64,000 nt of DNA, taken from positions 1,480,474-1,544,473 of the forward strand of contig OZ242203.1 of NCBI GenBank assembly GCA_965206275.1. Direction: 5' to 3'. The notes under the pieces are model-generated. The model was not told the DNA's origin. It did not search any database and saw only the letters and a program-made list of their open reading frames with translations. This DNA is from Dehalococcoidia bacterium (GTDB lineage: Bacteria; Chloroflexota; Dehalococcoidia; UBA6926). Shown one piece after another: positions 11,126-57,571 of this stretch; position 1 is the first letter of the stretch, and the number at the start of each line of letters is the position of its first letter. The position numbers and the translations under genes are program-made.

Positions 11126-11132
11126 CGCTAGA

Positions 11133-12140: not shown

Positions 12141-12206
12141 CCTCCACTCCGCGACGCGCTACGCCGCCGTGTCAGGTTGCCTTCATTGTGCCATCAAACG
12201 GGTTCG

Positions 12207-12623
12207 TTATCGACTGTAACGCCTGCGTGCGATCATGTAGCGAAGGATGATGATGGCGACAACGGCCAACGCAATGACGATGAAAAGCAGGATGGCGCGA
12301 GGCCCGAGAATGCGTACGGCGATGAAGGCAAAGGCCAGCCCGATGGCCAGGCGCAACAGGAATAGCAACATGGTGGCTCTCATGAATTCACGGGCCGCGG
12401 GCCGAAGCCCCTCGCCGCTTCCGCCGCCAAAGCTGCGGAACATCCCGGCCATGCTGTTGAGAGGGCCGCCGTCACGCGCTCTTGGCGGACGTGGCATGAC
12501 GGGCTTTTCGCCCTGCTCACGCAGGATCTCCTCGATCTCGTCGCGGAGGCCATCACCCTGATGCTCCGCCTCACTGTCCTGGTTGTCCCGGGGTGTGCTC
12601 ATTGTGCTTCCCCTTACCCCCAT
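12207..12623 (-). CDS. small membrane protein (C-terminal TM helix)
   Basis: 138-aa ORF with hydrophobic LLFLLRLAIGLAFAFIAV and LLFIVIALAVVAIIIL segments. Confidence 0.35.
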   Translation of the reverse strand: MGVRGSTMSTPRDNQDSEAEHQGDGLRDEIEEILREQGEKPVMPRPPRARDGGPLNSMAGMFRSFGGGSGEGLRPAAREFMRATMLLFLLRLAIGLAFAFIAVRILGPRAILLFIVIALAVVAIIILRYMIARRRYSR

Positions 12624-41271: not shown

Positions 41272-42960
41272 TCATCCAATCGTGGGGTCGTAGCTCAGTC
41301 GGGAGAGCACCTGCTTTGCAAGCAGGGGGTCAGGGGTTCGAATCCCCTCGGCTCCACCACCTCGGATGGTACTGCGAACTCCGTCGGTTAGGGCGAGTTT
41401 GGCGGTATCCGAATCGCCTATTGGGCTGTCTTCGGGCATGGGGATCGTGTAGACGATTGTCGCCTTGCCCGGCCTTACCTGAATCTCCCTGACGAATGAC
41501 CTAATGAAGGCGCGCGTCTCAGTCAGTTCGCTGGTTCGGAGATACTCACTCATATCAGCGGCGAAGGCAGTGATTGTCTCCGCCCGATCCAGCAGTTCGC
41601 GCCGTTCCGCTAATATTGCCCTGGCCTCATCGGCGGCCTGTTCGAGCTTCTCTCTGCGGTCCTTGAGTTCTCGGACGCGCTCGGCCGCGTCGGCCATCTC
41701 CATGTCGGTCGTCTCAATGACGTGCCAGATGCGTGCTAGTCGGCGTCTCACGTCCTCAAGCTCGCCCTCGATTGTTTCCAGCCGCCCACGCTGCTCATGT
41801 GCCAAGCCGTCCATCTCTTCATCGAGGACACTGACGAGACCTCGGATGTTGCCCTCAGTGAGGACGTTCTCACGGAGATTGCGAACGATTGTCTCCTCGA
41901 ACGACCTGGCATTGATGCGCGGCGTCTCGCAGGAGCCGGTGCCGGTCTTGATGATGGACTGGCAGACGTAGTAAGTGTACTTGCCGCTTTTGGCCTCGGC
42001 CGCGGTGAGGGCTTTCCCACAGAGGGCGCACGTGGCGAGTCCGCTGAGGAGGTAAGGGCTGGCGGCACGGCGCGGGTGGACGGTCATTGGCGAGCGGGCC
42101 TTCAACAGGCGGTTGACTCGTTGAAACTCCAGTTGGGTGACGATGGCGGGAAATGCGTTCTCGACGCGGACGGGCGGCGTGCCGTCCTTCGAACCTGTGC
42201 CCCAGACAAGAGTGCCGGTGTACGCTTCATTGACAAGGATCTTGTGAACTGTGGTGATCCGCCACTGACTGCCGGTCGACGTGGAGACGCCCTCGCCGTT
42301 GAGCGTCTTGGTCACGTCCATGAGTGACTTCCCCTTGAGCACCATGTCGAAGATGCGGCGCACGACGGTGTCGGCGGGCGGATCGAGGTCGAGACGGGGC
42401 CGTTTCTTCGCCCCGTCCTGCACGTAGACCCGCCGGTAGCCGAATGGAGAGCTGGATGTCACCCAGAAACCGCGTGACGCCGCCTCCCGCATTCCCCGTG
42501 TGACCTCCTGTGCCAAGTTCTCCGAGTAGAACTCATCTACGCTCTCGATGATGGCCTCCATGAGCTTGCCAGTGGGGGTGTCGTCGGCATGCTCGGTGAT
42601 GGAGACGACGCGGACACCCTTGCGGCGGAGCATGGACTTGAAGGCGACGGCGTGTTCGCGCTTGCGGGTGAAGCGAGAAAACTTCCAGACAAGAATCTCC
42701 TTGAAGGGAGCGTCCGATGCAGCAGCCGCATCGATCATCTTTCTGAACTGTGGACGGTCAGCGATACGCCCGCTCTCGGCCTCATCGATGTACTCGCGCA
42801 CGACGGTCTGGCCGTTCTTTGCCGCGTAATCCCGCAACGCCCTCAGTTGAGCCGCAACGGATAGATCAACGTCCTGCCGGTCGCTGGACACCCGTGCATA
42901 CAAAGCGACAGGCTCATACGTATCGCCTTGCGGCATTGTTGCATCAGTATTCTGCTTCAA
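41272..42960 (-). mobile_element. large serine recombinase (integrase); ORF extends antisense across tRNA-Ala
   Basis: N-terminal resolvase domain with catalytic LYARVSSDRQD, recombinase domain, Zn-ribbon CALCGK...YYVC and a coiled coil. The last ~29 codons are the reverse complement of the tRNA (EGIRTPDPLLAKQVLSRLSYDP). Confidence 0.85.
41284..41359 (+). tRNA. tRNA-Ala (anticodon TGC) with encoded CCA; integration site of genomic island
   Basis: GGGGUCGUAGCUCAGUCGGGAGAGCACCUGCUUUGCAAGCAGGGGGUCAGGGGUUCGAAUCCCCUCGGCUCCACCA. G3:U70 pair, anticodon loop UUUGCAA. Confidence 0.9.
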
Positions 42961-43332
42961 TGCAGGCCTCCTTTTAGTTCATTTGGCACGGTTGAGCTAC
43001 ATCTATACTTGTCATAACTATACGAGAGCAGTCAAGGCCACGAGGGACATCAACAAATAACTGCATACCGAAGTCTGATGGGGGCTTGCTCTGTTCCTGT
43101 CAGGCGACTGATTCGCGGCTGACAGTCGATCGAATAATTGGCAAGCGCCATCTCTTATCTGAAGTCAGGAATAACACACTACGAGTATGCGTACAGTGCC
43201 TCGCTGGGCCGGGTCAGGCGTTCCCAGGGACGCGTTCTATCCGTCCGCCCCCGATCCGGGCTCGGCTCTGGGGAGGACTTGCTCTCCGGCTCCGGATGTC
43301 CTCGATCTGCTCGCTGGGAGCCGATAGGGTGT

Positions 43333-43510
43333 CAATTCGAGCTTGATTGCCAAGAATACACGATAACTGCACGGATATAGAGGGTCGAAAAGCACAGAGA
43401 TGCCACACGGGCTCTGTATCGTGAAAAGCGGTACACCCAACGCGGTGGAGGGGGGTTTATCTGGCATTCGACCGGTGTGCTAACGCAGGTGAGAAGCGGA
43501 GACCTCATCC
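43333..43510. repeat. copy A of conserved ~170-nt intergenic element (divergent promoter region recombinase <-> mpaB-like)
   Basis: ~75-80% identical by eye to 48425..48600 (aatacacgataactgcacggatatagagg...ctgtatcgtgaaaag... versus aatacacaataactacacggataaaagagg...ctgtatcgtgagaag...). Confidence 0.7.
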
Positions 43511-43569
43511 CAAAACCCGTTCGCTATCCCGTGGGTCGAATGCCTCCCTAATCCCTGAACCCCCCGCCA

Positions 43570-43621
43570 TTCTTGATTCCGCGCAGGGTCCCTTCTGGGT
43601 AGAGCTCTGCGCGGAATCAAG
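43570..43621. promoter_or_regulatory. perfect 16-bp inverted repeat (tcttgattccgcgcag / ctgcgcggaatcaaga) with 20-nt loop
   Basis: Read directly. No downstream T-tract, so it is not a classic intrinsic terminator. Lies ~100 nt upstream of the 43718 start. Confidence 0.5.
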
Positions 43622-43717
43622 AACCTGTACAGGCGCGAGACGGCCGACTGCTTCCGATCCGCCTGTATTTGACCTTCGGCGGTCTGTAGAACCGCGCAGC
43701 AGACTGGAGGACTCTCA

Positions 43718-44905
43718 GTGACAGCCGCTGCCGAACCCCTGAAGATTCCCTCTGCCTACCTTGAGGGCTACAGTCGGGCTCGCGAAGTAGATCCCGAACT
43801 GGCGGAAATCTACATCCGGCACACGCTTGTCACCGACCCGCTCGCTGACGCCGCCATGGAGGCTCTCAGCAACCATGAGCCGACGCGGGCACAGGCGTTC
43901 ATTCAGGCGGGTATGGACGGCGACTACGAAACTCTGCGCAACGCCCCTCAGGCGTTGAGAACGTTCTTCGACTCGCTTGACCCGCCCGAGGGCATGCTCG
44001 ACCCAACAAGAGTCATGCCCGGCATCCGCGCCTTCCACAAATACTCCGACGTGTACTTCCTTGGCCTGCTCATCGACTCCATCGTCACCGGCTTCAGTAC
44101 CAACATAAGCAAGTCCTTCCATATGCGGGGCCGACTCGCGGGAAATCTCCGCCGCCTCAGGCAGAACACTCGCCACATCGTCGAGATCACCCTCCCGGGG
44201 GGGCTTGACCGCCACGGTGACGGCTGGAAGCTGACCATTCGCATCCGACTCACGCACGCCCGCGTCCGTCGCCTGCTTCTCGATTCGGGCGAGTGGGATG
44301 TGGCGGCAGAGGGGTTGCCGCTGCACGCCGCTCACATCGCGCTTGCCGCCAGCGGCTTCTCTGCCAACAGCATTGAGGCGGTGGGCAAGCTTGGCATCAA
44401 GATGAAGTCCCAGGAGCGCGACGATCTCATGCATATCTGGCGCTATACCATCTGGCTCCTAGGTGTCCCCGAGGAGATCTTCTTCAACAACGTCGAAGAG
44501 GCCATGCACCTGAAGGAGATCGGCTACCTCTGCGAACCGCGCCCGGACATCGAGTCCTCCGCCATGGCGCACGCCATCATCACCGCCGTCCCCGATCTCA
44601 TGAATATCACCGACCCCACACAGAAGAAGAAGGTCACGAGCGCAGTCTTCCGGGCCTCTCGTGCCCTCATCGGCGACGAACTCGCCGATGCCCTCGACTA
44701 TCCGAAGCAGTCGACCTTCGGGGCGCTGGCGCTCTTCCGGGCGCAGCGGCGGCTGCAGATGCTTGCGGCGCGCTTCATCCCCGGCGTCACCCCCCACTCC
44801 TTCAATAACTTTGCCGGGCTGCTCCAGCGCTCCGTCTATGACGAACACGGCATCAGCTACCGCCTGCCCGACGCCGTGAAGGATTCCGACTCGACTGCCT
44901 GGTAG
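43718..44905 (+). CDS. MpaB/DUF2236-like oxygenase family protein (tentative)
   Basis: 395 aa. RIRLTHARVRR resembles the conserved R-x-x-H-A-x-VR block of DUF2236/Lcp-like proteins. Confidence 0.45.
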   Translation: MTAAAEPLKIPSAYLEGYSRAREVDPELAEIYIRHTLVTDPLADAAMEALSNHEPTRAQAFIQAGMDGDYETLRNAPQALRTFFDSLDPPEGMLDPTRVMPGIRAFHKYSDVYFLGLLIDSIVTGFSTNISKSFHMRGRLAGNLRRLRQNTRHIVEITLPGGLDRHGDGWKLTIRIRLTHARVRRLLLDSGEWDVAAEGLPLHAAHIALAASGFSANSIEAVGKLGIKMKSQERDDLMHIWRYTIWLLGVPEEIFFNNVEEAMHLKEIGYLCEPRPDIESSAMAHAIITAVPDLMNITDPTQKKKVTSAVFRASRALIGDELADALDYPKQSTFGALALFRAQRRLQMLAARFIPGVTPHSFNNFAGLLQRSVYDEHGISYRLPDAVKDSDSTAW

Positions 44906-44964
44906 CGCCTCGTAACGGCCTGCTCCGGGAGGCCTGCCCGAATGTCCGACATAGCGCCGATTCC

Positions 44965-45840
44965 TTACCGACGAAGGCGCCGACGCAGCGCAACCACCCC
45001 CAGACCCGCGAGGATAGCGCCGATGCCGGTTATCAGGCCAATCGCCCAGATCGGCAGCCCGGAGCCGTCGACGGTCGGGGGCTGCGCGTTGGGAGTCGGC
45101 GAACTCTCGGGCTGGGTGGCCGGAGGCTCCACGACACTCAGTGTGTAGAAGATGCTGTCGTAGTAGAGGGCGCTCGGACCCTCGAAACCTGAGTCGGTGC
45201 CGACGATCAGCCAGACCCGGCCCTCGCTGTCCGAATTGACGCTCAGTGGCAGGTCTATATTGTCCAGGGTCTTGATCCGGTACTCCCTGTTCACCACGTC
45301 GGGGTGAGCCACATCGCCCACGACAACCATCGATTGACCGCCGTTGGCCTGGTTGCCCTTGTCGATGTTCATCCTGAGCCACCGGTTGCTGTCCTCTTCA
45401 GTCATTGGCTCGACGCTCGATACCCCGGCCTTGACGTAAACGCTCTCGCCGGGTGAGCCGCCTATGCCGAACAACCCGGCCGGTACGTTGGTGGCCATAT
45501 CAATGGATACATCCACCGCGTATGTCGTGTTCGGCATCAGTCCGCCAACCTGCCTCTTCAGATACATGAAGAGGTCGTCACTGCGGTTGTGTCCCTGGAC
45601 GTAGACGCCATTGCCTTCGAGCCCGTCTGGAAGCGAGCGATGCCCCTGACCGAGCTCGAAGATCTCCTGATCATAGTCCACGGGCAGGTCTGCGAACCCG
45701 ACCGTCCAGCCCTCGGCACCGCTCTCGAAGTCGAAGCTGAAGTCAATTCGTGTTCCATCCTGCGCAAGCACCACCAACGGGACGGACAGCATGGTCATGA
45801 TGACGAATACTGCAGTCGGCAGCACCCGCCATATGGGCAT
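44965..45840 (-). CDS. exported hypothetical protein with signal peptide, T/P-rich linker and C-terminal TM anchor
   Basis: MPIWRVLPTAVFVIMTMLSVPLVVLAQ signal peptide and C-terminal LPIWAIGLITGIGAILAGLGVVALRRRLRR. Confidence 0.5.
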   Translation of the reverse strand: MPIWRVLPTAVFVIMTMLSVPLVVLAQDGTRIDFSFDFESGAEGWTVGFADLPVDYDQEIFELGQGHRSLPDGLEGNGVYVQGHNRSDDLFMYLKRQVGGLMPNTTYAVDVSIDMATNVPAGLFGIGGSPGESVYVKAGVSSVEPMTEEDSNRWLRMNIDKGNQANGGQSMVVVGDVAHPDVVNREYRIKTLDNIDLPLSVNSDSEGRVWLIVGTDSGFEGPSALYYDSIFYTLSVVEPPATQPESSPTPNAQPPTVDGSGLPIWAIGLITGIGAILAGLGVVALRRRLRR

Positions 45841-45933
45841 GACGCAGCGTGGGCTTCGGACTGAGTTCTTCAACATATCCTCCGGGCGGCTGCAACTAGG
45901 AACGCCTGCTGGACACACGCCATGGACGCGGAG

Positions 45934-48324
45934 CTACTCTCTTTCACTTTGAGAAATCTCCGGCGCCTGTTGCAGGGGCTTCTCCATCCTGTAGCCGACG
46001 CGGGGCTCAGTGTGAATGTAACTGGGGTTGTCGGCGTCGTCCGCCAGTTTGTGGCGAAGATTTCTGATGAATGTGCGTACGGGACCGGAGTGGCCTGCGT
46101 GTCCCGGCCCCCATACCCGTTGCAGCAGGTGGTCATGGGTCAGCACGCGGCCAGCGTTGACCGAAAGCTCTACGAGTAGCCGGTACTCGATATCAGTCAA
46201 CCGGACTGGGCGTCCCGCCAGGTGGACCCGTCGCTCGGTGTAGTCGATGATCAGATTCCCCAGCCGGTAGGGTTCCGATGGCTCGGCCAGCTCGGGCGCT
46301 GCCCGTCGCCGCAGGGCCGTCTGGACCCTCGCCACGAGCTCAGTCGGCGAGAAGGGTTTGACTACGTAATCGTCTGCGCCGGCCTCCAACGCTCTGGCGA
46401 TGATCTGATCCCTGCCATAGGCCGACAGGAAGATCACGGGCACGTCAGAAAGCTCCGGGATGCTCTCCAAGAGTTCTATTCCGTCCGCTCCCGGCAGCAT
46501 CAGGTCGAGCAGCACCAGGTGCGGCCTCGCCTCCTCCACGAGACGGGCCACCTGTTGCGGGTCGCCCGTCACTATTGGCTCATATCCGGCATTCGCGAGC
46601 GCGTCCCGGACGAATCTGAGCGTCTGCGGGTCGTCATCCACCGCCAGAACGCGCGGCCGCTCCCGCCTCATCCTGCGGGTGCTGGTTGAGGCGCCGGGGG
46701 CGATGACCGGTACTGCGTGTCCGGCTTCTAGGACGACGGGTAGAGTGAACGCGAATCGGGTCCCCATGCCCGGTCCCTCGCTCTCTGCCCAGATGCGCCC
46801 CCCGTGTGCCTCCACTATCCCCTTGCAGATCGCAAGGCCCAGGCCCGAGCCGGCAATGCCCTCCCCACGCTCGTCCCCGTCGACACGTGAGAATTTCCTG
46901 AACAATTGGGGCATGAGGTCGGCGGACAAGCCTCTGCCGTCGTCGTCGACGCTGAAAACAACCTGAGCTTCGTCCTGCACGGCGGCTAACCGGATGACGG
47001 ACGACTCGGGAGAGTTCCTGGCTGCGTTGGTCAGCAGGTTGCCGATGACCTGGACGATGCGCCGCCGATCCGCCATCACCGCGGGCAGGTCCGGCTCGAC
47101 GTCAATCTCCATATTGTCTCTGCCTCCACCGCTGAGGAACGAACTCCTGGCCTGATCCACCAGAGCAGCGGCATCGGACGGCTCGGCGGAGACCGACAGC
47201 GTGCCCGACTCGATGCGGGCCATGTCGAGCAGGTCGGTGATCAGCGCGCTCATGTGGTTGGCCTGCTGCTCAATGATCTCGAAGAACAGGTCCATCTCCG
47301 CCGGGTCCAGCGACCTGGCCGACTCTTTCAGAGTTGTGGCGGACCCTTTGATGGAGGTGAGCGGCGCCCGCAGCTCGTGGCTCACGATGCCCAGGAACTC
47401 GGCCCGCTGCCTATCCATCTCCTCCAGCGGTGTCAGGTCCTGTATCGTGACGACGACGGACTCCACGTCGCCCTCATCCTTGCGGATGGGCGTGGCGTTG
47501 AGCAGCACGGTTACACTCCGGCCGTCCGGGACCTCGATGACGATCTCCTCGGCACGAACCGTCTCCGCCTCGCTCATCGCCTGTGCCAGGGGAAACTCCG
47601 CAAGGGAGAGCTCCCGCCCGTCCGCCCGCCGGGCCTTCGCCGTCTCCATTAGCCGCTCCAGCGGCTGATCCGGGTCTTGCAGGGCGTCGATGATCCTCGC
47701 GGCCTCCCGGTTGAACGACACGGGGGCTCCGGTGTCGGCGTCGAGCACGACGACGCCCACGGGCGAGGTGTTGACCAGCGTCTCCAGATTGGCCCTGGCA
47801 CGCCGCTCGTCCCGGTGCCTGCGGGCGTTGGCGATCACCAGCGCCGCCTGGGACGCGAACATGACGAGGGTCTCCTCGTCCTCCCGGCTGAACTCCTGAC
47901 CGGGACCGCTACGGGCGAGGTAGATGTTGCCCACGCCCTCTCCACCGTGGCGGATGGGCGCGGCGAGGAAGGAACTGACCGGCACGGGAGGGCGAAATTC
48001 GGGAAGACCCAGGGAGCTCATGTGGGCACTGAAATCTGCGAGTCGCAGCGGGTCGGGCATGGCGCTCAAATGCTCCAGGAACCGGAAACCCTCCGGCAAC
48101 TCCCATAGCCGCTCGGCCTCCTCGGGGGTCAGGCCCGCTCCCAGGAAGTCCTGCAGGCCGCCTGAATCGTCCAGCACGACGAGCACGCCGTAGCTGGCGC
48201 CGGTCAAGGACCGGGCGCTTTCGAGGACCTCCTGCAGCACCGTGTCGAGGTCGAGACTCTCGTTGATGCGCAGGCTGGCCTCGCTGAGCCGTGTCAGGCG
48301 CTCCCCCAGGGACCGGTTTTCCAT
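45934..48324 (-). CDS. sensor histidine kinase (GAF-PAS-HisKA-HATPase) fused to a complete OmpR-type response regulator (REC plus winged helix)
   Basis: H-box IVSHELRAPLTSIKG, G-box GSGLGLAICKGIVEAHGG, REC RVLAVDDDP...LLDLMLPGADG, and C-terminal Trans_reg_C (RLTDIEYRLLVEL...EPRVGYRM). Confidence 0.85.
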   Translation of the reverse strand: MENRSLGERLTRLSEASLRINESLDLDTVLQEVLESARSLTGASYGVLVVLDDSGGLQDFLGAGLTPEEAERLWELPEGFRFLEHLSAMPDPLRLADFSAHMSSLGLPEFRPPVPVSSFLAAPIRHGGEGVGNIYLARSGPGQEFSREDEETLVMFASQAALVIANARRHRDERRARANLETLVNTSPVGVVVLDADTGAPVSFNREAARIIDALQDPDQPLERLMETAKARRADGRELSLAEFPLAQAMSEAETVRAEEIVIEVPDGRSVTVLLNATPIRKDEGDVESVVVTIQDLTPLEEMDRQRAEFLGIVSHELRAPLTSIKGSATTLKESARSLDPAEMDLFFEIIEQQANHMSALITDLLDMARIESGTLSVSAEPSDAAALVDQARSSFLSGGGRDNMEIDVEPDLPAVMADRRRIVQVIGNLLTNAARNSPESSVIRLAAVQDEAQVVFSVDDDGRGLSADLMPQLFRKFSRVDGDERGEGIAGSGLGLAICKGIVEAHGGRIWAESEGPGMGTRFAFTLPVVLEAGHAVPVIAPGASTSTRRMRRERPRVLAVDDDPQTLRFVRDALANAGYEPIVTGDPQQVARLVEEARPHLVLLDLMLPGADGIELLESIPELSDVPVIFLSAYGRDQIIARALEAGADDYVVKPFSPTELVARVQTALRRRAAPELAEPSEPYRLGNLIIDYTERRVHLAGRPVRLTDIEYRLLVELSVNAGRVLTHDHLLQRVWGPGHAGHSGPVRTFIRNLRHKLADDADNPSYIHTEPRVGYRMEKPLQQAPEISQSERE

Positions 48325-48424
48325 GTCTCATCCCCATTCCGGGCCGGGCTCTGCGGAATTCTTGTGCCTCGCCGGCGCCCGGATGGCCTCATGTTGGTCG
48401 TTGAGGACCGGTTTTGGGGCGAGT

Positions 48425-48600
48425 GTAGCGAATTTATTGAAAATACACAATAACTACACGGATAAAAGAGGTTGCAAGACACAGAAATACGACACACGCG
48501 CTGTATCGTGAGAAGCCAGTACTCAAGCGTGACGGGATAGTTTCACCTGGGATTCAACCGGTCGACCAATGGAATCGGGGCGGCGAGGCTGAGTCCCATG
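48425..48600. repeat. copy B of conserved ~170-nt intergenic element (divergent promoter region HK-RR <-> giant protein)
   Basis: See copy A. Ends ~30 nt before the 48629 ATG. Confidence 0.7.
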
Positions 48601-48628
48601 AAGGCTTCTAGAGAGACGTGCAAACCCG

Positions 48629-51600
48629 ATGACCAACTCCGGCATTAGCTCTATATCCCCTTACATAAAGTGTTGGGCGCGGCATCATGAACGGACGCCT
48701 CCTTCCCACCGTTCGCGGACGGGCGTTCCTCGCCCCCTGTTCCTCCTCCTGGCAGCACTGGCCGCCGTCGCCTTTGTGCTCCTCTCCCCGACCCCGACCA
48801 ACGCGCAGAACGCGGACGACTGCGCCGGGGACAGGACCACCACCTGCTCCATCGCGGTGGGCAGCTCCGTCACCGGCGAGATCGAGAGCGCCAGCGATGT
48901 CGATTACTTCAGCATCTCCGTCACGTCGGGCGCCATCTACCAGTTCGACCTGGAAGGCTCGCCCACAAGCAAGGGAACGCTTGCGGACCCACACCTCAAT
49001 CTCTGGGGCAGCACCGGCGCCACCAGTCTTACGTCAGACAACAACAGCGGCACCGGCAATAACGCCCGCATTACCTGGACCGCCACCGGCACGGGGACCT
49101 TCTATGTCGCGACCTCTTCGAGTAACCCCGGCGCCACGGGCACCTACACCCTCACGGCGGCGGTCGCCCCCGTCACCCTGATCAGCAATGTGGGCCAGGG
49201 CGCGGATAGTGAAAATACTGGCAGCATCGATTATGCGCAGAACTTCACTACCGGGAGCAACTCGGGCGGTTACACGTTAACCAGCGTCGAAATCGTTTCA
49301 GAAGATCCTGAAGGTGACGATGCAAGCGTCTCTCTATGTACGGTCGATGCTTCGGGATTCCCAACTTCCGACTGTACGGCGCTTACGGCGCCGGGCAGTT
49401 TTGCGGCCGGAACGCTTGCGTTCACTGCCCCCGGCAATACGACGCTTGACGCCAACACGACCTACACGCTCCTCATTACTTCACCCGGCGGAGAAACTCT
49501 TACCTGGGACGCGACCACGTCCGACAGCGAGGACACGGGTGGAGCGACGGGCTGGAGCATCGCAAACGCCTATCACTTTAAGAGCCCCGGCTGGAGAACC
49601 ACCTCCAGCGGTAAATCGTTCCGCATCACGGTCAAGGGCACGGTGAAGGCGGACGTCCCCGGCGCCCCGACGAGCCTCACTGCCACCGCCGGCGACGCCC
49701 AGGTGGCACTGAGCTGGGCCGCGCCGGCCAGCGATGGCGGCGCGGCGGTCACGAAGTACCGCCACCGCCACAAGCTGAGCTCCGCGTCCACCTGGGGCAG
49801 CTGGACCGAGGTGACCGGCACGGCGGCGACGGTCACCGGCCTGACCAACGGCAGCGCCTACGACTTCGAGGTGCAGGCGAACAACTCGTCGGGCTGGGGC
49901 GCAAGCGCCTCGGCCAGCGCCACGCCGGCGGTGGGGCTCGGCGTTCACATCAGCCTGAACAGCGCCCAGACCAGCCCCATCGGCATGTGGTCCCCCGACG
50001 GCGAGACCCTGTGGGTGGGGCAGTGGACCTCAAGGCAGATCTACGCCTTCGACCTGTCCGACGGGAGCGAGGATACCTCGGAGGGATGGACCCTCACCAA
50101 CCCCGGGGCCGGCAGCGACAACAACATCAAGCCCACGGGCATCTATTCCGACGGCACCCACGTCTGGGTGTCCGACGCCGACCACGACCGGGTGTTCCGG
50201 TACGACTTCAGCAGCAAGTCGCATAACAGCGTCAACCTCGCGCTGCACAGCGACAACGGCAAGCGCCAGGGCCTCTGGTCCAACGGGACAACGGCCTGGA
50301 TTGCCGACAGCGACGACAACAAGCTCTACGCCTACACCCTGTCCGACTTCAGCCGCGACAGCGGCAAGGACATCGACCTGCACAGCGACAACGGCGAAGT
50401 CCGGGGCATCTGGAGCGACGGAACAATCATCTGGGCGCTGGACAGGGATGACGAGGTGATCTACGCCTACACCCTGTCCGACGGGAGCCGAGACGCGGAC
50501 CTCGACATCGACCTGCCCTCCGAAGGCGTCAACTACAACAGCATCTGGTCCGACGGGACCATCATGTACGTCATCGAGAACGCCGCCGGGTCCACCCGCA
50601 GCCCCCACATTCACCGGCTGCGGATGCCGCGGACCGTCGTCCTCGACCCCGTCCTGCTCAGCAACACCGGGCAGGCGCGAGACGGCCTTGATGACATTTC
50701 CACTTACACCTGGGCCGCGCAGCAGTTCACCACCGGGTCCAACGCCGCCGGCTACACCCTGAGCAGCGTCTCGGTGAGCCCCACCTTTACGGGAACGCCG
50801 TCGGTGACCATGTCGCTGCGCGCGGACGACGGCTCGGACAATCCGTCGTCCACTGATCTGGCCACCTTCGCCCCTCCCACGACCTGGTCTAGCGGGAATG
50901 CGAATGTGTTCACCCTGTCGACGCCCGTCGAATTGCAGGCGAACACCAAGTACTGGGTGCGCATGACGGCCTCGACCAGTTTTGAGGTCCCTTATGCCGA
51001 CGGCTCGAACTTGGACAGCGGCAGCCAGGCCGGTTGGGACGTCGAGCGTTCCTGCGACCCTGACGCCTGCTATACCGATGCCATCTACCAGATGATCCTG
51101 CGCGGCACGGTGGCGGTCCCGGCCGACGTGCTGCTCAGCAACACCGCGCAGACCTCGCTTACAGACGGCACTCAGTTCGACGGATTTACTTGGTTGGCGC
51201 GGCAATTCACGACCGGGCCCGACTCCGGTGGTTACATGCTGGGCAGTATCAGGTTGCTCGGCGGTGGATCGCAGAATACGGTGCCGATCAGCGTGTCCTT
51301 GCGCGCGGACAACGGCTCGAACCGGCCGTCGTCCACTGATCTGGCGACCTTCAATCCGCCGTCGTCGTGGGTTGACGGGGAGAACCTCTTTACCCGGTCG
51401 TCGGCTGTCACTTTGCAGGCGAATACCAAGTACTGGGTGTACATCGACACCTCATCAGCGATTGGCGCCGATGTTGCCGTACTCAAGCGTACCCTGAGCG
51501 ACCAGTTTGTCGGCAAAAGCGGTTGGAGCTTCGGGGGAGCATGTTTCAAGGAAACCGGTAACGTCCCCGTCAGTTGTGAGCTAGGTGATCCAGCAACCTA

Positions 51601-54600
51601 CTGGCAGATGGTCCTGAGCAGCACGGTGGTGACGACGGTTGCCCCCGGCGCCCCGACGAGCCTCACCGCCACCGCCGGCGACGCCCAGGTGGACCTGGCT
51701 TGGGCCGCGCCGGACAGCGACGGCGGCGCGGCCGTCACGATGTACCGCCACCGCCACAAGCTGACCTCCGCTACTACCTGGGGCAGCTGGACCGAGGTGT
51801 CGGCCACCACGTTGACCGCCACCGTCACCGGCCTGACCAACGACAGCGCCTACGACTTCGAGGTGCAGGCGCAGAACTCCGTGGGCTGGGGCGCAAGCGC
51901 CTCGGCCAGCGCGGCGCCCGTCTCCCTCGACCCCGTGCTGCTCAGCAACGACGGGCAGACGCCAGGCACGGATAGTCCTAGTGATCTCACCCTTTACGCT
52001 TGGGCCGCGCAGCAGTTCACCACCGGGTCCAACTCCACCGGGTACACGCTGAGCAGCGTCTCGGTGCGGGCCGGTGTCACAGGAACACCTACGGTGACCA
52101 TGTCGCTGCGCGCCGACGACGGCTCAGACAATCCGTCGTCCACTGATCTGGCCACGTTCACCGCCCCGTCGTTCTGGGTCAGCGGGAGTGCGAATGTCTT
52201 CACCCTGTCGACGCCGTTCGAGTTGGAGGCGAGCACCAAGTACTGGCTGTACATGACCGCCACCGGCGGCAGCTTCGAAGTGGATTTTGCCGATAGCTTG
52301 AACGCGGACAGCAGCAGCCTGGCTGGTTGGAGCATTGGGAGAGCCTGCGATGCCGACTTTTGCTATGACTCCTCCCCCTTCCAGGTGATCCTGCGCGGCA
52401 CAGTCGTGCCGACAACCGTGCTGATCAGCAATGTGGGCCAGGGCGGGGATGACGAACGTACTAGCAGGAACAGGAGCGCGCAGCGCTTCACTACCGGGAG
52501 CAACTCGGCCGGTTACACGTTGACCAGCGTCGAAGTCATCTCAGAAGACACTGCCGGTGACCGTTTTAGCGTCTCTGTGTGTACCGTCACTGGTTCGGGA
52601 TTCCCAACTTCCACGTGTACGGCGCTGACCGCGCCGGGCAGTTTTTCGGCTGGAACTCTTGCGTTCACCGCCCCCGACAATACGACGCTTGACGCCGGCA
52701 CGACGTACACGATCGTCATCGCTCCTGCCGGCAATGCATTCGTGAGTTTGGACACCACCACTGCCAACGGCGAGGACGCGGGTGGGGCAGCGGGCTGGAG
52801 CATCCGAAACAGCCTTGATTTTAACAACGGGGCAAACTGGGCAGTCTCCGCCAATGAATCGCTCCGCATCACGGTCAAGGGCACGGTGCGGCCCGTGGTC
52901 GTCCCCGGCGCCCCGACGTCCCTGACCGCCACCGCCGGGGTAAAGCAGATCGCACTGTCGTGGACCGCGCCGGCGTCTGACGGCGGCGCGGCTATCACCG
53001 GCTACACCCTGCAGGTCTCTGACTCCGATCCCTCCGGCACAGCGAACTGGGCCGACGTGTCACCACAGCCCCAGGGCACAGCCACGACCTACACCCACAC
53101 CGGTTTGGCCGACGGGGCGGAGCGCTGGTACCGGGTGGCCGCGACCAACAGCGTGGGCGACGGTGCGTACTCGGCGACGGCGACGGCCACCACCCATAAC
53201 GTCCCCGGCGCCCCGACGAATTTCACCGCCACCGCCGGCAACGCCCGGGTGGACCTGGCTTGGGACCCGCCGGCCAGCGACGGCGGCGCGCCGGTCACGA
53301 TGTACCGCCTCCGCCACAAGCTGAGCTCCGCGTCCAGCTGGGGCAGCTGGACCGAGCTCACCGGCACGACGGCGACCGTCCCCGGCCTGACCAACGGCAG
53401 CGCCTACGACTTCGAGGTGCAGGCGCAGAACTCCGTGGGCTGGGGCGCAAGCGCCTCGGCCAGCGCCACGCCCGCGCCCCCCGACCCCAACCCCGTGCTG
53501 CTCAGCAACGACGGGCAGACGACGTTCAGCCACCAGCTCCTGAATGATGTTGGCTGGCTCGCCGCGCAGTTCACCACCGGCTCCAACTCCGACGGTTACA
53601 CCCTGAGCAGCGTTGCGCTGATCGGCGATAACGCCCAGCAGACCGTCCCGTTGACCGTGACGCTGCGCGCGCGCAGCGGCGTAAGGCCCTCGTCCACCGT
53701 GCTGGCCACTTTCACAAACCCGTCGTCCTGGGTTGCCGGGGAGAACTTCTTCACCCTTTCCTCGCCCGTCAAGCTGGAGCCGGATACCTCGTACTGGGTG
53801 TACGCGGATACGAGCGGGGCCTCGAACAGTGACCTGGCCGGGGTTGCTTTCATCCTCAATAACGCTGCGGACGGGCGCAGCCTGCCCGGCTGGAGCTTCG
53901 GGTATTCCTGCACCAACGACACCTGTCTCTCCAGCAACGCCTATCGTTTCCAGGTGGTCCTGCGCGGCACGGTGACGAACCCCGCGCTGATCGACACAAC
54001 TGGCAATCTCCGTTCCACTATGTATAGGCTCGGTCACGGTCTGCATGAGGTGGAGTTCGTGGAGGGCCGCTATTACCGGGTGCATGTGGAAGGGCGGGGT
54101 TCTGACCCGGTGCGGGAGCCGCTGATTGCGGTGCTGGACTCGGAGCGCAGGGAGCTGGCGAACAATCGCTACAACCGGGGTCCGACGACTCATGGACCGG
54201 ATTGGGATTACAGCGGCGACGGTCTGGGGGCGAAGCAGGACCGGTTCTGGTATTGGCTGTTGCCGTCTGAGCAGCGCACGCCGGACACGCCGGACTACTG
54301 GAACCCGTACTACGACGAGTCCTTGGGTGCTAAGGGCCTGGCGGGGGCGTGGCGGGAGGACATCGACGATGTTCCGGAGTGCCCGTCGGGCACGATGTGT
54401 ACTAAAGAGCGCACGCCGGAGCATTTCCACCAGGACGACATCAGCTATCTGAACCCCTTCACGTTCAAGGCGCCCGCCTCGGGCACGTATTTCGTCCAGT
54501 TGCGGTCGTACACCTATGACGGCAACCAGTATCGGCTGACGGTGACCCAGGTGGATACCTCGGCCGACGACGAGCCCGCCGAGAGCACCGCGACGGCTGC

Positions 54601-57571
54601 GACGGCTGCGGCTGACGGTTCGTACCATCAGTTCCGGCTGGAGTTTCCCTTCGACCGCGACTGGGTGAAGCTCGAGAACCTGACGGTCGGCAACAGCTAT
54701 CAGGTGCAGGTCAAGGGCAGCATCGTGTACGGCTGCCAGAACTGCCGCACGGTGGCGCATCTGATGAGCATCCGCGATGCCGACGGCGACCTGGTGGACA
54801 GCACGGGGGCGTATCCCAGCCGTCAGACGTTCACTGCGACCAGCACGACCCATTTCGTGGTGGCGGGATCGCGCGCCGGCTCACGGGGCATGTGGAGCAG
54901 CAGGGACACCCGCTGGTACGTGAAAGTGACCGACCAGTCGGGCGCGGGCGGCCAGTCGGACGGCCAGCCTCGCAGTGACGGCTCGGGCGGCGGCGTGTCG
55001 GCCAAGAACGCCGCCCCGACGTCCAAGAGCGTCGTCCCGACCGCGCCGGCGCCGGTGGTCGACGACTACGGCGACAGCCCCGACACCGCGCAGCCGCTGG
55101 CCGACGGGGACGTGCTGGACGGGGTGATCGAGACCTCCGGCGACAAGGACTGGTTCAGAGCCGAGCTGACCGAGGGCCGCCGCTGGCGGGTGCGCGTGAT
55201 CCCCGCGGACCGTGACGGCGAGTACGAGGTGAACCTCTACGGCGTGTACGACGCGAACGGCAACGTGCTGGTCAGCTGGTCTCCCCGCTGGTTCGTGGTC
55301 GATCTGCATCCTCCCGCGGACGGGGTGCACTACTTCGCCGTCGGCTCCGACAACCCCCAGGCCGTGGGCGCCTACACGATCAAGCTCAAGGACATGGGGC
55401 CGTCGGATCGAGAGCCCCGACCCCAGCCTGAGACGGGCCTGCCGACGATCAGCGGCACGGCGCAGGTGGGCGAGACCCTGACGGCCGACACCTCGGGCAT
55501 CGCCGACGAGGACGGCCTGGACAACGTTTCGTACAGCTACCAGTGGGCAGCCGACGGCGAGGACATAGCGGGAGCCACGGACTCGACCTACACCCTGGCC
55601 GACGCCGACGAGGGCAAGGCCATAAGCGTTACTGTGTCCTTCACCGACGACGCGGGCAACGAGGAATCTGTGACCAGCGCGGCCACGGCTGCGGTGGAGG
55701 CCAGGCCCAACACTCCGGCCACCGGCCTGCCGACCATCAGCGGGACCGCCCAGGTGGGCGAGACGCTGACGGCCGACGCGTCCGGCATCGCCGACGAGGA
55801 CGGGCTGACCATCGCGGCGTTCGGCTACCAGTGGGCAGCCGACGGCGCGGACATATCCGGGGCCACGGACTCGACCTACACGCTTGTCGACGCCGACGCG
55901 GGCACGGCCATCAGCGTCACGGTGTCCTTCACCGACGACGCAGGGAACGAGGAGTCGCTGACCAGCGCGGCCACGGCTGCGGTGGAGGCGGCGATTGGGC
56001 AGCTGCCTGAACTTCCGGCCGGCTCGACGATTTTGTGGTCTGCCGACATGACGGTGGTGGACTACGGTGCAGGCTCGGTCGGCGCCGGAAGCGCCGACCT
56101 GTTCGCCAACCAGGTCAGCGCTGACAACCACGAGGCGCAGTGGCTGTGGTCCTACACGCCTGGCCGGCAGGTCGACCTCTCGCTTCTGACGGCCATCATG
56201 GACACCGAGGACCTGGTGCTGCACATAGGCGATCTTGAGCTTCCCTTTGCGGATGCGTCGGGCTCGTTCTCGAACTTCACCTGGTACGGCGTGGATGTGG
56301 ATTGGGGGGACGGCCAGACGCTGCCGGCGCGAATCGCTCGTGTGGCCCAGGTTTCAGAGCCTGTGGCAAACACCCCGGCCACCGGCCTCCCGACCATCAA
56401 CGGCACCGCCCAGGTGGGCGAGACGCTGACGGCGGACACATCGGCCATCACCGACGAGGACGGCCTGGACAACGCGACGTTCAGCTACCAGTGGCAGGCC
56501 GACGGCTCCGACATAGCCAACGCAACGGACTCGACCTACACCCCCGTCGACGCCGACGAGGGCGCGGCCATCAGCGTCACGGTGTCCTTCACCGACGACG
56601 CCGGCAACGAGGAGTCATTGACCAGCACCGCCACGGCGGTGGTGGAGGCCAAGCCCAACACTCCGGCCACCGGCCTTCCGACCATCGGCGGCACCGCCCA
56701 GGTGGGCGAAACGCTGACAGCGGACACGTCAAGCATCTCAGACGAGGACGGCCTGTCCAACGCGACATTCAGCTACCAGTGGGCAGCCGACGGCGCAGAC
56801 ATTGCAGGGGCGACGGGCTCAACCTACACCCTTGCCGACGCCGACGAGGGCACGGCCATAAGCGTCGAGGTGTCCTTCACCGACGACGCGGGCAATGACG
56901 AGTCGCTGACCAGCGCGGCTACGGCGGCCGTGGAGGCGAAGCCCAACACCCCGGCCACGGGAGCGCCGACTATGAGCGGGATCGCCCAGGTGGGCGAGAC
57001 GCTGACGGCGGACACATCGGCCATCACCGACGAGGACGGCCTGACCAACGTCTCGTACAGCTACCAGTGGGCAGCCGACGGCGCGGACATATCGGAAGCG
57101 ACGGACTCGACCTACACCCTGACCGACACGGACGAGGGCACGACCGTCACCGTAACGGTGTCGTTCACCGACGACGCGGGCAACGAGGAGTCTTTGACCA
57201 GCACGGCCACTGTGGCCGTGGCGGGCGTGCCGGCGACTCCGCTGACGGCGACGGTCTCGAATGTCCCGGCATCTCACGACGGGGAGAATGTCTTCACCTT
57301 CGAGTTGCGGTTCAGCGAGGAGTTCCCCATCAGCTACAGGACCCTGCGGGACTACGCCTTCATTGTGAGTGGCGGGGACGTGACGCGGGCGAAGCGGATC
57401 GAGAAGGGCAGCAACATTGCCTGGCGCATCCACGTCAGGCCGGACTCGAACGGCGCCGTGACCATCATCCTGCCCGTGACCACCGACTGCGATGCCCCGG
57501 GAGCCATCTGCACGGACGACGGCCGGATGCTCTCTACGCGTTTGGAGTTGACCATCGACGGTCCATCGTAG
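48629..57571 (+). CDS. giant secreted multidomain protein (2980 aa)
   Basis: Uninterrupted 8.9-kb ORF with a hydrophobic signal-like segment LFLLLAALAAVAFVLLSPTPTNA. It has PPC-like domains (DVDYFSISVTSGAIYQFDLEG), 5 FN3 domains (PGAPTSLTATAGDAQVALSWAAPASDGGA), 6 copies of a ~180-aa module built on the F-T-T-G motif (AQQFTTGSN..GYTLSSV), WSDGT/YAYTLSDGSRD propeller-like repeats and 5 tandem ~95-aa repeats. Confidence 0.8.
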   Translation: MTNSGISSISPYIKCWARHHERTPPSHRSRTGVPRPLFLLLAALAAVAFVLLSPTPTNAQNADDCAGDRTTTCSIAVGSSVTGEIESASDVDYFSISVTSGAIYQFDLEGSPTSKGTLADPHLNLWGSTGATSLTSDNNSGTGNNARITWTATGTGTFYVATSSSNPGATGTYTLTAAVAPVTLISNVGQGADSENTGSIDYAQNFTTGSNSGGYTLTSVEIVSEDPEGDDASVSLCTVDASGFPTSDCTALTAPGSFAAGTLAFTAPGNTTLDANTTYTLLITSPGGETLTWDATTSDSEDTGGATGWSIANAYHFKSPGWRTTSSGKSFRITVKGTVKADVPGAPTSLTATAGDAQVALSWAAPASDGGAAVTKYRHRHKLSSASTWGSWTEVTGTAATVTGLTNGSAYDFEVQANNSSGWGASASASATPAVGLGVHISLNSAQTSPIGMWSPDGETLWVGQWTSRQIYAFDLSDGSEDTSEGWTLTNPGAGSDNNIKPTGIYSDGTHVWVSDADHDRVFRYDFSSKSHNSVNLALHSDNGKRQGLWSNGTTAWIADSDDNKLYAYTLSDFSRDSGKDIDLHSDNGEVRGIWSDGTIIWALDRDDEVIYAYTLSDGSRDADLDIDLPSEGVNYNSIWSDGTIMYVIENAAGSTRSPHIHRLRMPRTVVLDPVLLSNTGQARDGLDDISTYTWAAQQFTTGSNAAGYTLSSVSVSPTFTGTPSVTMSLRADDGSDNPSSTDLATFAPPTTWSSGNANVFTLSTPVELQANTKYWVRMTASTSFEVPYADGSNLDSGSQAGWDVERSCDPDACYTDAIYQMILRGTVAVPADVLLSNTAQTSLTDGTQFDGFTWLARQFTTGPDSGGYMLGSIRLLGGGSQNTVPISVSLRADNGSNRPSSTDLATFNPPSSWVDGENLFTRSSAVTLQANTKYWVYIDTSSAIGADVAVLKRTLSDQFVGKSGWSFGGACFKETGNVPVSCELGDPATYWQMVLSSTVVTTVAPGAPTSLTATAGDAQVDLAWAAPDSDGGAAVTMYRHRHKLTSATTWGSWTEVSATTLTATVTGLTNDSAYDFEVQAQNSVGWGASASASAAPVSLDPVLLSNDGQTPGTDSPSDLTLYAWAAQQFTTGSNSTGYTLSSVSVRAGVTGTPTVTMSLRADDGSDNPSSTDLATFTAPSFWVSGSANVFTLSTPFELEASTKYWLYMTATGGSFEVDFADSLNADSSSLAGWSIGRACDADFCYDSSPFQVILRGTVVPTTVLISNVGQGGDDERTSRNRSAQRFTTGSNSAGYTLTSVEVISEDTAGDRFSVSVCTVTGSGFPTSTCTALTAPGSFSAGTLAFTAPDNTTLDAGTTYTIVIAPAGNAFVSLDTTTANGEDAGGAAGWSIRNSLDFNNGANWAVSANESLRITVKGTVRPVVVPGAPTSLTATAGVKQIALSWTAPASDGGAAITGYTLQVSDSDPSGTANWADVSPQPQGTATTYTHTGLADGAERWYRVAATNSVGDGAYSATATATTHNVPGAPTNFTATAGNARVDLAWDPPASDGGAPVTMYRLRHKLSSASSWGSWTELTGTTATVPGLTNGSAYDFEVQAQNSVGWGASASASATPAPPDPNPVLLSNDGQTTFSHQLLNDVGWLAAQFTTGSNSDGYTLSSVALIGDNAQQTVPLTVTLRARSGVRPSSTVLATFTNPSSWVAGENFFTLSSPVKLEPDTSYWVYADTSGASNSDLAGVAFILNNAADGRSLPGWSFGYSCTNDTCLSSNAYRFQVVLRGTVTNPALIDTTGNLRSTMYRLGHGLHEVEFVEGRYYRVHVEGRGSDPVREPLIAVLDSERRELANNRYNRGPTTHGPDWDYSGDGLGAKQDRFWYWLLPSEQRTPDTPDYWNPYYDESLGAKGLAGAWREDIDDVPECPSGTMCTKERTPEHFHQDDISYLNPFTFKAPASGTYFVQLRSYTYDGNQYRLTVTQVDTSADDEPAESTATAATAAADGSYHQFRLEFPFDRDWVKLENLTVGNSYQVQVKGSIVYGCQNCRTVAHLMSIRDADGDLVDSTGAYPSRQTFTATSTTHFVVAGSRAGSRGMWSSRDTRWYVKVTDQSGAGGQSDGQPRSDGSGGGVSAKNAAPTSKSVVPTAPAPVVDDYGDSPDTAQPLADGDVLDGVIETSGDKDWFRAELTEGRRWRVRVIPADRDGEYEVNLYGVYDANGNVLVSWSPRWFVVDLHPPADGVHYFAVGSDNPQAVGAYTIKLKDMGPSDREPRPQPETGLPTISGTAQVGETLTADTSGIADEDGLDNVSYSYQWAADGEDIAGATDSTYTLADADEGKAISVTVSFTDDAGNEESVTSAATAAVEARPNTPATGLPTISGTAQVGETLTADASGIADEDGLTIAAFGYQWAADGADISGATDSTYTLVDADAGTAISVTVSFTDDAGNEESLTSAATAAVEAAIGQLPELPAGSTILWSADMTVVDYGAGSVGAGSADLFANQVSADNHEAQWLWSYTPGRQVDLSLLTAIMDTEDLVLHIGDLELPFADASGSFSNFTWYGVDVDWGDGQTLPARIARVAQVSEPVANTPATGLPTINGTAQVGETLTADTSAITDEDGLDNATFSYQWQADGSDIANATDSTYTPVDADEGAAISVTVSFTDDAGNEESLTSTATAVVEAKPNTPATGLPTIGGTAQVGETLTADTSSISDEDGLSNATFSYQWAADGADIAGATGSTYTLADADEGTAISVEVSFTDDAGNDESLTSAATAAVEAKPNTPATGAPTMSGIAQVGETLTADTSAITDEDGLTNVSYSYQWAADGADISEATDSTYTLTDTDEGTTVTVTVSFTDDAGNEESLTSTATVAVAGVPATPLTATVSNVPASHDGENVFTFELRFSEEFPISYRTLRDYAFIVSGGDVTRAKRIEKGSNIAWRIHVRPDSNGAVTIILPVTTDCDAPGAICTDDGRMLSTRLELTIDGPS
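55432..57230 (+). repeat. five near-identical ~285-bp tandem repeats inside the giant gene (copies 2 and 3 separated by a ~370-bp unique insert)
   Basis: Repeat unit NTPATGLPTISGTAQVGETLTADTSGIADEDGL..YSYQWAADG.DI.GATDSTYTL.DADEG.AISVTVSFTDDAGNEESLTS. Similar antisense ORFs recur at 55588, 56152, 56536 and 56824, which confirms DNA-level identity. Confidence 0.85.

Follow-up and report, generated by a model that had tools for sequence, protein, structure and literature searches.

A repeated DNA segment in a Dehalococcoidia genome as the probable 5′ control region of a fused sensor-kinase family, with one copy on a gene remnant

Two intergenic regions in a 64,000-nucleotide stretch of a Dehalococcoidia genome (the window) share a segment of DNA, and each lies between divergently transcribed genes. 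One copy (copy A) is found between a recombinase gene and an MpaB-like gene, and the other (copy B) between a gene for a fused sensor kinase and regulator (HK-RR) and a gene for a giant protein. The question raised by this locus is why the same segment occurs in both places. An initial annotation proposed a shared operator or promoter for the kinase fusion or, alternatively, a conserved leader or small RNA. The explanation that we consider likely is that the element represents the conserved 5′ control region of a lineage-expanded family of fused GAF-PAS-kinase-receiver-winged-helix (wHTH) proteins, and that copy A is what remains of a truncated paralogue. The element is thus an ordinary regulatory region with a lineage-specific motif, accompanied by a gene remnant, rather than a new kind of element.

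Extent and identity of the repeat

Smith-Waterman alignment of the two regions gives a score of 45.5, against 9.69 ± 1.0 (maximum 14) for 300 dinucleotide shuffles, and the initial annotation was therefore right that a significant repeat of at least the ~170 nt it described is present at both places. Its limits, however, were wrong. The full repeat spans about 43185–43510 (copy A) and 48265–48600 (copy B), reaching ~150 nt further leftwards to ~43185 and ~48265, and this extension takes in the HK-RR 5′ leader together with ~20 N-terminal codons, which in the intact gene occupy positions 48265–48324. The identity of 75–80% was likewise set too high for the whole segment: over the intervals first proposed it is 72% of aligned columns, or 64% when gaps are counted, and only an ungapped 75-nt core recovered by a repeat search (43355–43429 and 48442–48516) reaches 77%.

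The copies are direct repeats with an offset of 5087 bp, and their longest exact match is 11 nt (CTGTATCGTGA, 48501–48511 in copy B). The internal ACACGG/ACACGC motifs described earlier are real; reverse-complemented, they are minus-strand half-sites containing GTG, and they are spaced by 34 nt rather than ~31–33 nt. The half-sites fall at relative positions 2, 13, 36 and 47 on that strand. Searches of the window by an exact-box pattern, by an nhmmer model of the core and by a position weight matrix (PWM) each find only two copies.

Similar peptides can be read from minus-strand mini-ORFs across the repeat (43214..43408, 43332..43508, 48294..48497 and 48434..48526), as would be seen if a mini-ORF encoded a conserved small protein. 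However, most family copies carry stops in every frame and no frame is open across them, the core contains 1-nt indels, and its 17 mismatches between copies A and B are distributed 4/8/5 by codon position. The peptide likeness thus arises from the DNA repeat only, as had been supposed, and the chance that the repeat encodes such a protein is close to negligible.

A control region upstream of HK-RR genes

Copy B covers the 5′ end of the following gene.

45934..48324, minus strand: intact HK-RR gene, 796 amino acids, with GAF-PAS-HisKA-HATPase_c-REC-Trans_reg_C in a single polypeptide (Pfam)

The REC-wHTH portion of the encoded protein is closest to the structures of KdpE (E = 5e-42), MtrA, BaeR, PrrA, RegX3 and PhoP (E = 5e-42 to 1e-29). 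No clear membrane span is found in the protein, whose GAF domain begins at residue 24 and whose maximum hydropathy is 1.6. The family is very large, the best 120 clusters being 62–88% identical at full length, and it is found mainly in marine ENA/TARA assemblies where neighbouring proteins are labelled Chloroflexota. Its members share the N-terminus M-E-N-x-S-L-G-E-R-L-T-R-L-S-E-A and a nearly invariant recognition helix, which is too conserved for co-variation between helix and operator to be demonstrable. Published work on such a family in Chloroflexota, accompanied by giant fn3 proteins, was sought and none was found.

Directly downstream of the HK-RR gene lies a 317-aa ORF (44965–45918, minus strand) with no Pfam match that is a conserved partner, sharing 67% identity with L047 12422–13285 and having a further counterpart at L050 12446–13330. 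Its product, with a signal-peptide-like N-terminus and a C-terminal hydrophobic anchor, is probably exported, and the ORF is probably co-transcribed with the sensor gene.

Upstream of the HK-RR start codon, copy B contains the following features.

48325..48421, minus strand: inferred 5′ leader, with a GGGGA/GGAGG Shine-Dalgarno sequence just 5′ of the ATG (family alignment)
48422..48427, minus strand: −10-like hexamer TACACT (family consensus TAGAAT), a conserved alignment column
48440..48459, minus strand: proximal tandem pair GTGTAGTT-ATT-GTGTATTT, 11-bp spacing (PWM and family alignment)
48476..48495, minus strand: distal tandem pair GTGTCGTATTT-CTGTGTCTT, a degenerate second dimer site ~3 helical turns upstream (family alignment)
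48501..48510, plus strand: CTGTATCGTG, half-site-like and in the opposite orientation (alignment)
48549..48561, minus strand: distal box CCGGTTGAATCCC (family CCGGTCGAAT.CC), the upstream limit of family conservation (alignment)

A weak −35 (TTGTGT, 48445–48450) overlaps the proximal pair 17 nt from the −10. Equivalents of the distal pair are clearer in L050, L049 and L051, and are degenerate in both window copies. Contigs were fetched for eight HK-RR homologues, and comparison loci are designated by L numbers. Read on the HK-RR strand from its upstream end, the family alignment consists of the distal box CCGGTCGAAT.CC, the inverted block CACGATACAG, a distal pair of direct repeats (GTGTGGTAT..CTGTGTTTT), the proximal pair GTGTAGTT-ATT-GTGTATTT with the weak −35 TTGTGT inside it, 17 nt, GCTAGAAT, and then a ~100-nt leader with GGAGG, the ATG and the conserved N-terminus. 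The half-site consensus is RTGTAKTT, arranged as two tandem pairs with a spacing of 10–11 bp.

Further copies, which the initial annotation had suggested looking for in relatives, are found upstream of HK-RR homologues: nhmmer detects the element there in L001, L002, L010, L047/48 and L050 (E = 1e-10 to 1e-25) and weakly in L052. In paralogues at 67–77% protein identity (L049 and L051–54), overall DNA similarity is gone whereas the two 10–11-bp RTGTAKTT pairs are kept, along with a TAnnnT hexamer at the same 15-nt offset from the half-site end. A composite pattern (RTGYA-N5-6-RTGKA-N16-18-TAnnnT) was scanned against 657 kb comprising the window and the family loci, and each of its 14 matches falls at an element copy. 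This pattern is located 92–142 nt upstream of the ATG in 10 of 12 HK-RR genes from marine Chloroflexota/Dehalococcoidia assemblies and is absent from the other two (L002 2900–5368 and L058 6517–8880). Conservation of the motif is therefore family-wide, and its place is exclusively upstream of HK-RR 5′ ends.

Similar results are given by a PWM built from relatives only, with the window copies left out: copies B and A reach 34.1 and 25.6 bits, respectively, compared with 10.7 for the next window match and a shuffle maximum of 15.4. Neither window copy is called as a promoter when scanned strictly for the sigma-70 consensus, which is consistent with the weak −35. Pattern scans of the genome and metagenome collections produce 13 and 31 matches, respectively, nearly all of them chance; the true matches are only two copies, upstream of HK-RR genes in one Dehalococcoidia MAG, which is the sole named genomic match for the DNA motif.

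The extent of conservation also indicates which gene the element belongs to. An identical HK-RR protein (P0052) is encoded beside different giant genes, and similarity between these loci breaks ~190–215 nt upstream of the ATG, just past the repeats. The element is therefore inherited together with the HK-RR gene. As part of the explanation that we judge likely as a whole, copy B would be the working version of this control region, standing before an intact gene.

We considered whether the repeat instead holds a structured cis-regulatory RNA (a leader or riboswitch) or a small RNA, which we regard as very unlikely. The ~100-nt HK-RR leader is partly conserved, the copy B leader folds slightly better than its shuffles (z = −1.7), and one long-range complementarity (CACGATA/TATCGTG) is present. 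However, conservation is strongest in blocks upstream of the inferred −10, which the HK-RR transcript would not include, and five of six single-sequence fold z-scores are between −1.1 and +0.3. Rfam 15 at gathering thresholds identifies only two tRNAs in the whole window, and a search of positions 42900–48800 at E ≤ 10 yields nothing but an irrelevant ASdes match (E = 2.6). Furthermore, RNAalifold analysis of eight copies predicts 0 pairs on the plus strand of the element and 4 pairs in the leader, with no compensatory change or covariation. Thus, the leader or small-RNA alternative finds no RNA signal in Rfam, RNAalifold or the fold z-scores.

The layout of the element is that of an activator-dependent promoter of the OmpR/PhoB type. 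Winged-helix domains of the OmpR/PhoB family bind head-to-tail to tandem direct repeats ~11 bp apart, as is the case for PhoB, KdpE, Mycobacterium tuberculosis PhoP and MtrA. In pho promoters the box replaces the −35 and is located ~10 bp upstream of the −10, and the regulator’s own operon is usually autoregulated. Like pho-box class II promoters, the element has direct repeats at 10–11-bp spacing, kept in 10 of 12 family promoters, which form two dimer sites about three helical turns apart, and its proximal site overlaps a poor −35 (TTGTGT) that is 17 nt from a good −10 (TAGAAT-like). As in OmpR/PhoB systems, the adjacent gene encodes a REC-wHTH module (Pfam Response_reg and Trans_reg_C; KdpE E = 5e-42). 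In contrast, the half-site is RTGTAKTT rather than the pho box CTGTCAT, the regulator is fused to its kinase, a distal box and an inverted half-site are added, and the operator is a predicted one.

From these features we infer that the region has promoter activity, that the protein binding it is probably the fused sensor-kinase/regulator itself, and that neighbouring genes may be affected. Specifically, phosphorylation of the receiver would let the protein’s own winged-helix domains bind the tandem repeats head-to-tail. Occupation of the proximal pair, which stands in for a good −35, would then recruit RNA polymerase, as PhoB does at pho boxes, and the outcome would be positive autoregulation of the fused sensor-regulator. 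The combination of ~11-bp tandem repeats over a weak −35 with a downstream gene encoding a wHTH domain makes positive autoregulation the best-supported, albeit predicted, outcome. The same bound region may also influence the divergent gene for a giant exported protein, a possibility raised because most family members sit back-to-back with such a gene.

A second comparison can be made with the hybrid two-component systems (HTCS) of Bacteroides, in which sensor kinase, receiver and DNA-binding domain are combined in one polypeptide and which form an expanded family beside the polysaccharide-utilisation loci that they control (PMC11253607, PMC3404733). HK-RR proteins similarly unite kinase, receiver and DNA-binding output in one chain, belong to a large paralogous family, and each have beside their gene a large, variable locus encoding exported proteins. 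Unlike HTCS proteins, they have neither a periplasmic sensor nor a clear membrane span, and sensing would be cytoplasmic through GAF and PAS domains. The outputs of HTCS proteins are AraC-type helix-turn-helix domains, whereas that of HK-RR is an OmpR-type winged helix (Trans_reg_C), and the phylum is Chloroflexota.

A truncated paralogue at copy A

The promoter-like features of the HK-RR strand are retained at copy A, where they are followed by a coding stub.

43185..43240, minus strand: dead 5′ stub of a second HK-RR paralogue, with the ATG lost, 2-nt and 1-nt deletions, and similarity ending at about codon 20
43241..43334, minus strand: 5′-leader relic (alignment)
43335..43340, minus strand: −10-like hexamer TCGAAT, one change from the family TAGAAT (family alignment)
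43353..43372, minus strand: proximal tandem pair GTGCAGTT-ATC-GTGTATTC, overlapping a −35-like TCGTGT at 43358–43363 (PWM 25.6 bits)
43389..43408, minus strand: distal tandem pair GTGTGGCATCT-CTGTGCTTT, in register with copy B at the offset of 5087 (family alignment)
43414..43423, plus strand: inverted half-site-like block CTGTATCGTG (alignment)
43463..43475, minus strand: distal box CCGGTCGAATGCC, with a second, inverted copy at 43532–43544 (alignment)

The stub contains an in-frame stop and is 78% identical to copy B over coding columns. Because copy A carries this dead gene stub, it is not an independent intergenic element. The proposal of a shared operator or promoter for the kinase and OmpR-type fusion therefore holds in part: a family-conserved −35 and −10 on the HK-RR strand and tandem direct repeats at 10–11 bp agree with it, whereas copy A is the 5′ end of a truncated paralogue. 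To describe one element as serving two independent divergent promoter regions is misleading, given that copy A comprises the promoter, leader and ~20 codons of a second HK-RR gene.

Identity in the promoter part is 65% between copies A and B and 67–68% between copy A and copies in other genomes. Copy A is thus as distant from copy B as from the copies of other genomes, and therefore derives from a separate paralogue rather than a recent duplication. Copy A lacks a match to the composite pattern because its −10 is TCGAAT. A tblastn search of the window for the missing body of its gene, as might be left if a mobile element had inserted into an HK-RR gene, returns the intact gene only.

Copy A resembles a pseudogene stub in that neither start codon nor reading frame is preserved, the coding part extends for only ~20 codons and the upstream part can still be aligned; similar stubs are present in relatives. 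It keeps 72% of conserved coding columns, compared with 78–94% in intact genes. In contrast to a typical gene remnant, the promoter is no more decayed than those of working copies, with 80% of conserved promoter columns kept (71–96% in working copies), and copy A may still bind the regulator. The most likely course of events is that the gene body was deleted, which would have left the promoter, leader and frameshifted ~20-codon stub beside the island recombinase as a decaying remnant. Judging from the preserved motifs, residual binding or weak activity as an orphan promoter is possible.

Relatives carry 5′ stubs of ~45 codons (L002 12449–12760), 78 codons (L009) and 17 codons (within a 47-aa ORF of L058), and a 3′ stub is also present (L047 13333–13584). 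The variable breakpoints (codons ~17, ~20, ~45 and ~78) indicate deletion or rearrangement in a fast-turning gene family and argue against a site-specific event.

Three observations concern the individual stubs. On one Dehalococcoidia MAG contig, L009 6916–7396 can be compared with L010 2962–3442 and 6048–6627; the L009 segment is a 96%-identical duplicate of the element and first 78 codons, joined to a homologue of the gene that follows the intact HK-RR gene, and the duplicated module has recently lost ~2.6 kb internally. The 47-aa ORF of L058 (11581–11724, minus strand) has its own TAGAAT −10 and GGAGG, and encodes the HK-RR motif RDRLTRLSEA followed by a hydrophobic helix; it could be either a stub that now encodes a small membrane protein or the product of a fortuitous fusion. 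In copy A, the distal box GGTCGAATGCC is doubled in inverted orientation (43463–43473 and 43534–43544, 60 nt apart) with G-rich flanks at 43446–43457 and 43558–43569, and this doubling may reflect an inversion or two elements that once stood head-to-head.

Neighbouring genes and the surrounding island

The genes flanking the two copies bear on whether the element serves them as well.

48629..57571, plus strand: divergent neighbour of copy B, a 2980-aa exported repeat protein with fn3 and PPC domains (Pfam), the usual neighbour type of the HK-RR family
43718..44905, plus strand: divergent neighbour of copy A, an MpaB/Lcp-type oxygenase gene (Pfam)
41272..42960, minus strand: large serine recombinase, downstream of the copy A stub (Pfam)

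A giant exported-protein gene (1300–3600 aa) is the divergent or nearest upstream neighbour of HK-RR at 7 of ~10 distinct loci. In L058, the mpaB orthologue (85% identity) is preceded by unrelated DNA that lacks the element; in a comparison aimed at an ancestral pairing of mpaB with HK-RR, a divergent HK-RR gene was found ~1.1 kb upstream of this orthologue, and it is a distant paralogue with no detectable element. Three recombinase relatives (88–93% identity) have their own conserved upstream block, which corresponds to positions up to 43037 and does not include the element.

These comparisons weigh on the idea of a shared regulon operator, placed independently before the mpaB-like and recombinase genes and before the giant-protein and HK-RR genes, through which HK-RR would co-regulate all four. 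Both copies keep high-scoring tandem sites in divergent intergenic regions, giant genes are the usual divergent neighbour, and relatives contain orphan copies without an HK stub, for example beside an amidohydrolase gene (L050 13632–13720) and at L002 10888–10989. However, copy A includes HK-RR leader and coding sequence and is so explained by descent rather than recruitment, the L058 mpaB orthologue and the recombinase orthologues have no element upstream, and the PWM finds no third site in the 64-kb window. In addition, conservation ends just past the distal box and travels with the HK-RR side. We therefore consider independent placement unlikely. The shared-operator idea survives in a weakened form, in which the sites are probably operators and copy A appears to be present by descent.

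Promoter capture by the recombinase as a conserved arrangement was also considered and rejected, as the three relatives share their own upstream block from which the element is absent.

The recombinase suggests another possibility, that the repeat is a MITE or IS fragment or a serine recombinase attachment site, with the direct copies bounding an excisable 5.1-kb cassette. The copies are indeed direct repeats 5087 bp apart, a large serine recombinase adjoins copy A, and transposases and recombinases are common near family loci. Nevertheless, neither terminal inverted repeats nor target duplications are present; the initial annotation had named terminal inverted repeats as the feature that would mark an IS or MITE, and both copies lack them. 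All copies are at HK-RR 5′ ends, at remnants or at the expected place of such, stub breakpoints differ and hence define no fixed crossover site, and the longest exact match, at 11 nt, is too short to support homologous recombination. The element is also missing from recombinase relatives at other sites, and the collection scans located it in one Dehalococcoidia MAG only, upstream of HK-RR genes. A mobile or attachment-site origin is thus extremely unlikely, and a control region inherited with HK-RR genes remains the preferred explanation.

A bolder extension of this explanation would make the element the control hub of a module found throughout the lineage in uncultured marine Chloroflexota, in which each soluble, fused sensor binds its own RTGTAKTT repeats and, by way of this bidirectional region, switches on the hypervariable giant surface-protein gene beside it. 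Stubs such as copy A would persist as functional decoys or orphan promoters, and that of copy A, pointing at the serine recombinase, could couple island excision to the sensor. Taken together, we find this proposal speculative and quite unlikely.

A paralogous promoter and a gene remnant are by themselves an ordinary finding. Their value is as an entry point, because they supply a precise candidate operator motif, two RTGTAKTT tandem pairs over the −35, for a large family of two-component regulators, uncharacterised so far and each built as one polypeptide, in uncultured marine Chloroflexota. Of greater interest as a lead is the almost constant pairing of HK-RR regulators with giant exported proteins that are exchanged rapidly. 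If the predicted binding is true, the motif would enable regulon prediction in MAGs and offer a handle on the control of giant surface proteins in these bacteria. Turnover of the HK-RR family is quick and leaves promoter-bearing 5′ stubs, which annotators should treat as remnants rather than as new small genes or RNAs.

Several further observations concern the neighbouring genes. The giant gene at 48629–57571 is internally repetitive, with DNA repeats of 288 bp and ~1.3–3.2 kb at 73–90% identity, and the C-terminal ~110 aa of its product are common to the giant protein of L002 (12828–14381). Across the family, including L047, L049 and L050, the divergent neighbour is nearly always a 1300–3600-aa fn3/cadherin/S8/LapA-like protein, and next to P0052 in L051–L054 (HK-RR 10001–12385) the giant exported neighbours measure 1367, 2418, 1389 and 1843 aa. 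This marks the locus as an apparent hypervariable surface-protein site in which the sensor gene is the conserved anchor.

A perfect 17-bp inverted repeat, TTCTTGATTCCGCGCAG ... CTGCGCGGAATCAAGAA (43570–43586 and 43607–43623), with a 20-nt loop and followed by the palindrome CCTGTACAGG, is located ~100 nt upstream of the mpaB-like gene and is absent from copy B. It could be the operator of another regulator or a hairpin.

Finally, the recombinase ORF reads antisense through an entire tRNA-Ala(TGC) gene (41284–41359, plus strand) before its stop. Genes to the left of this tRNA are housekeeping genes and those to the right are variable cargo, and the region to the right therefore behaves as an island. 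A direct repeat of the tRNA 3′ end of at least 13 nt was sought elsewhere and none was found. The recombinase family is multi-copy in Chloroflexota MAGs, with a C-terminus that varies in length, and L057 represents the syntenic site in a relative (88% recombinase identity), where the cargo is wholly different.
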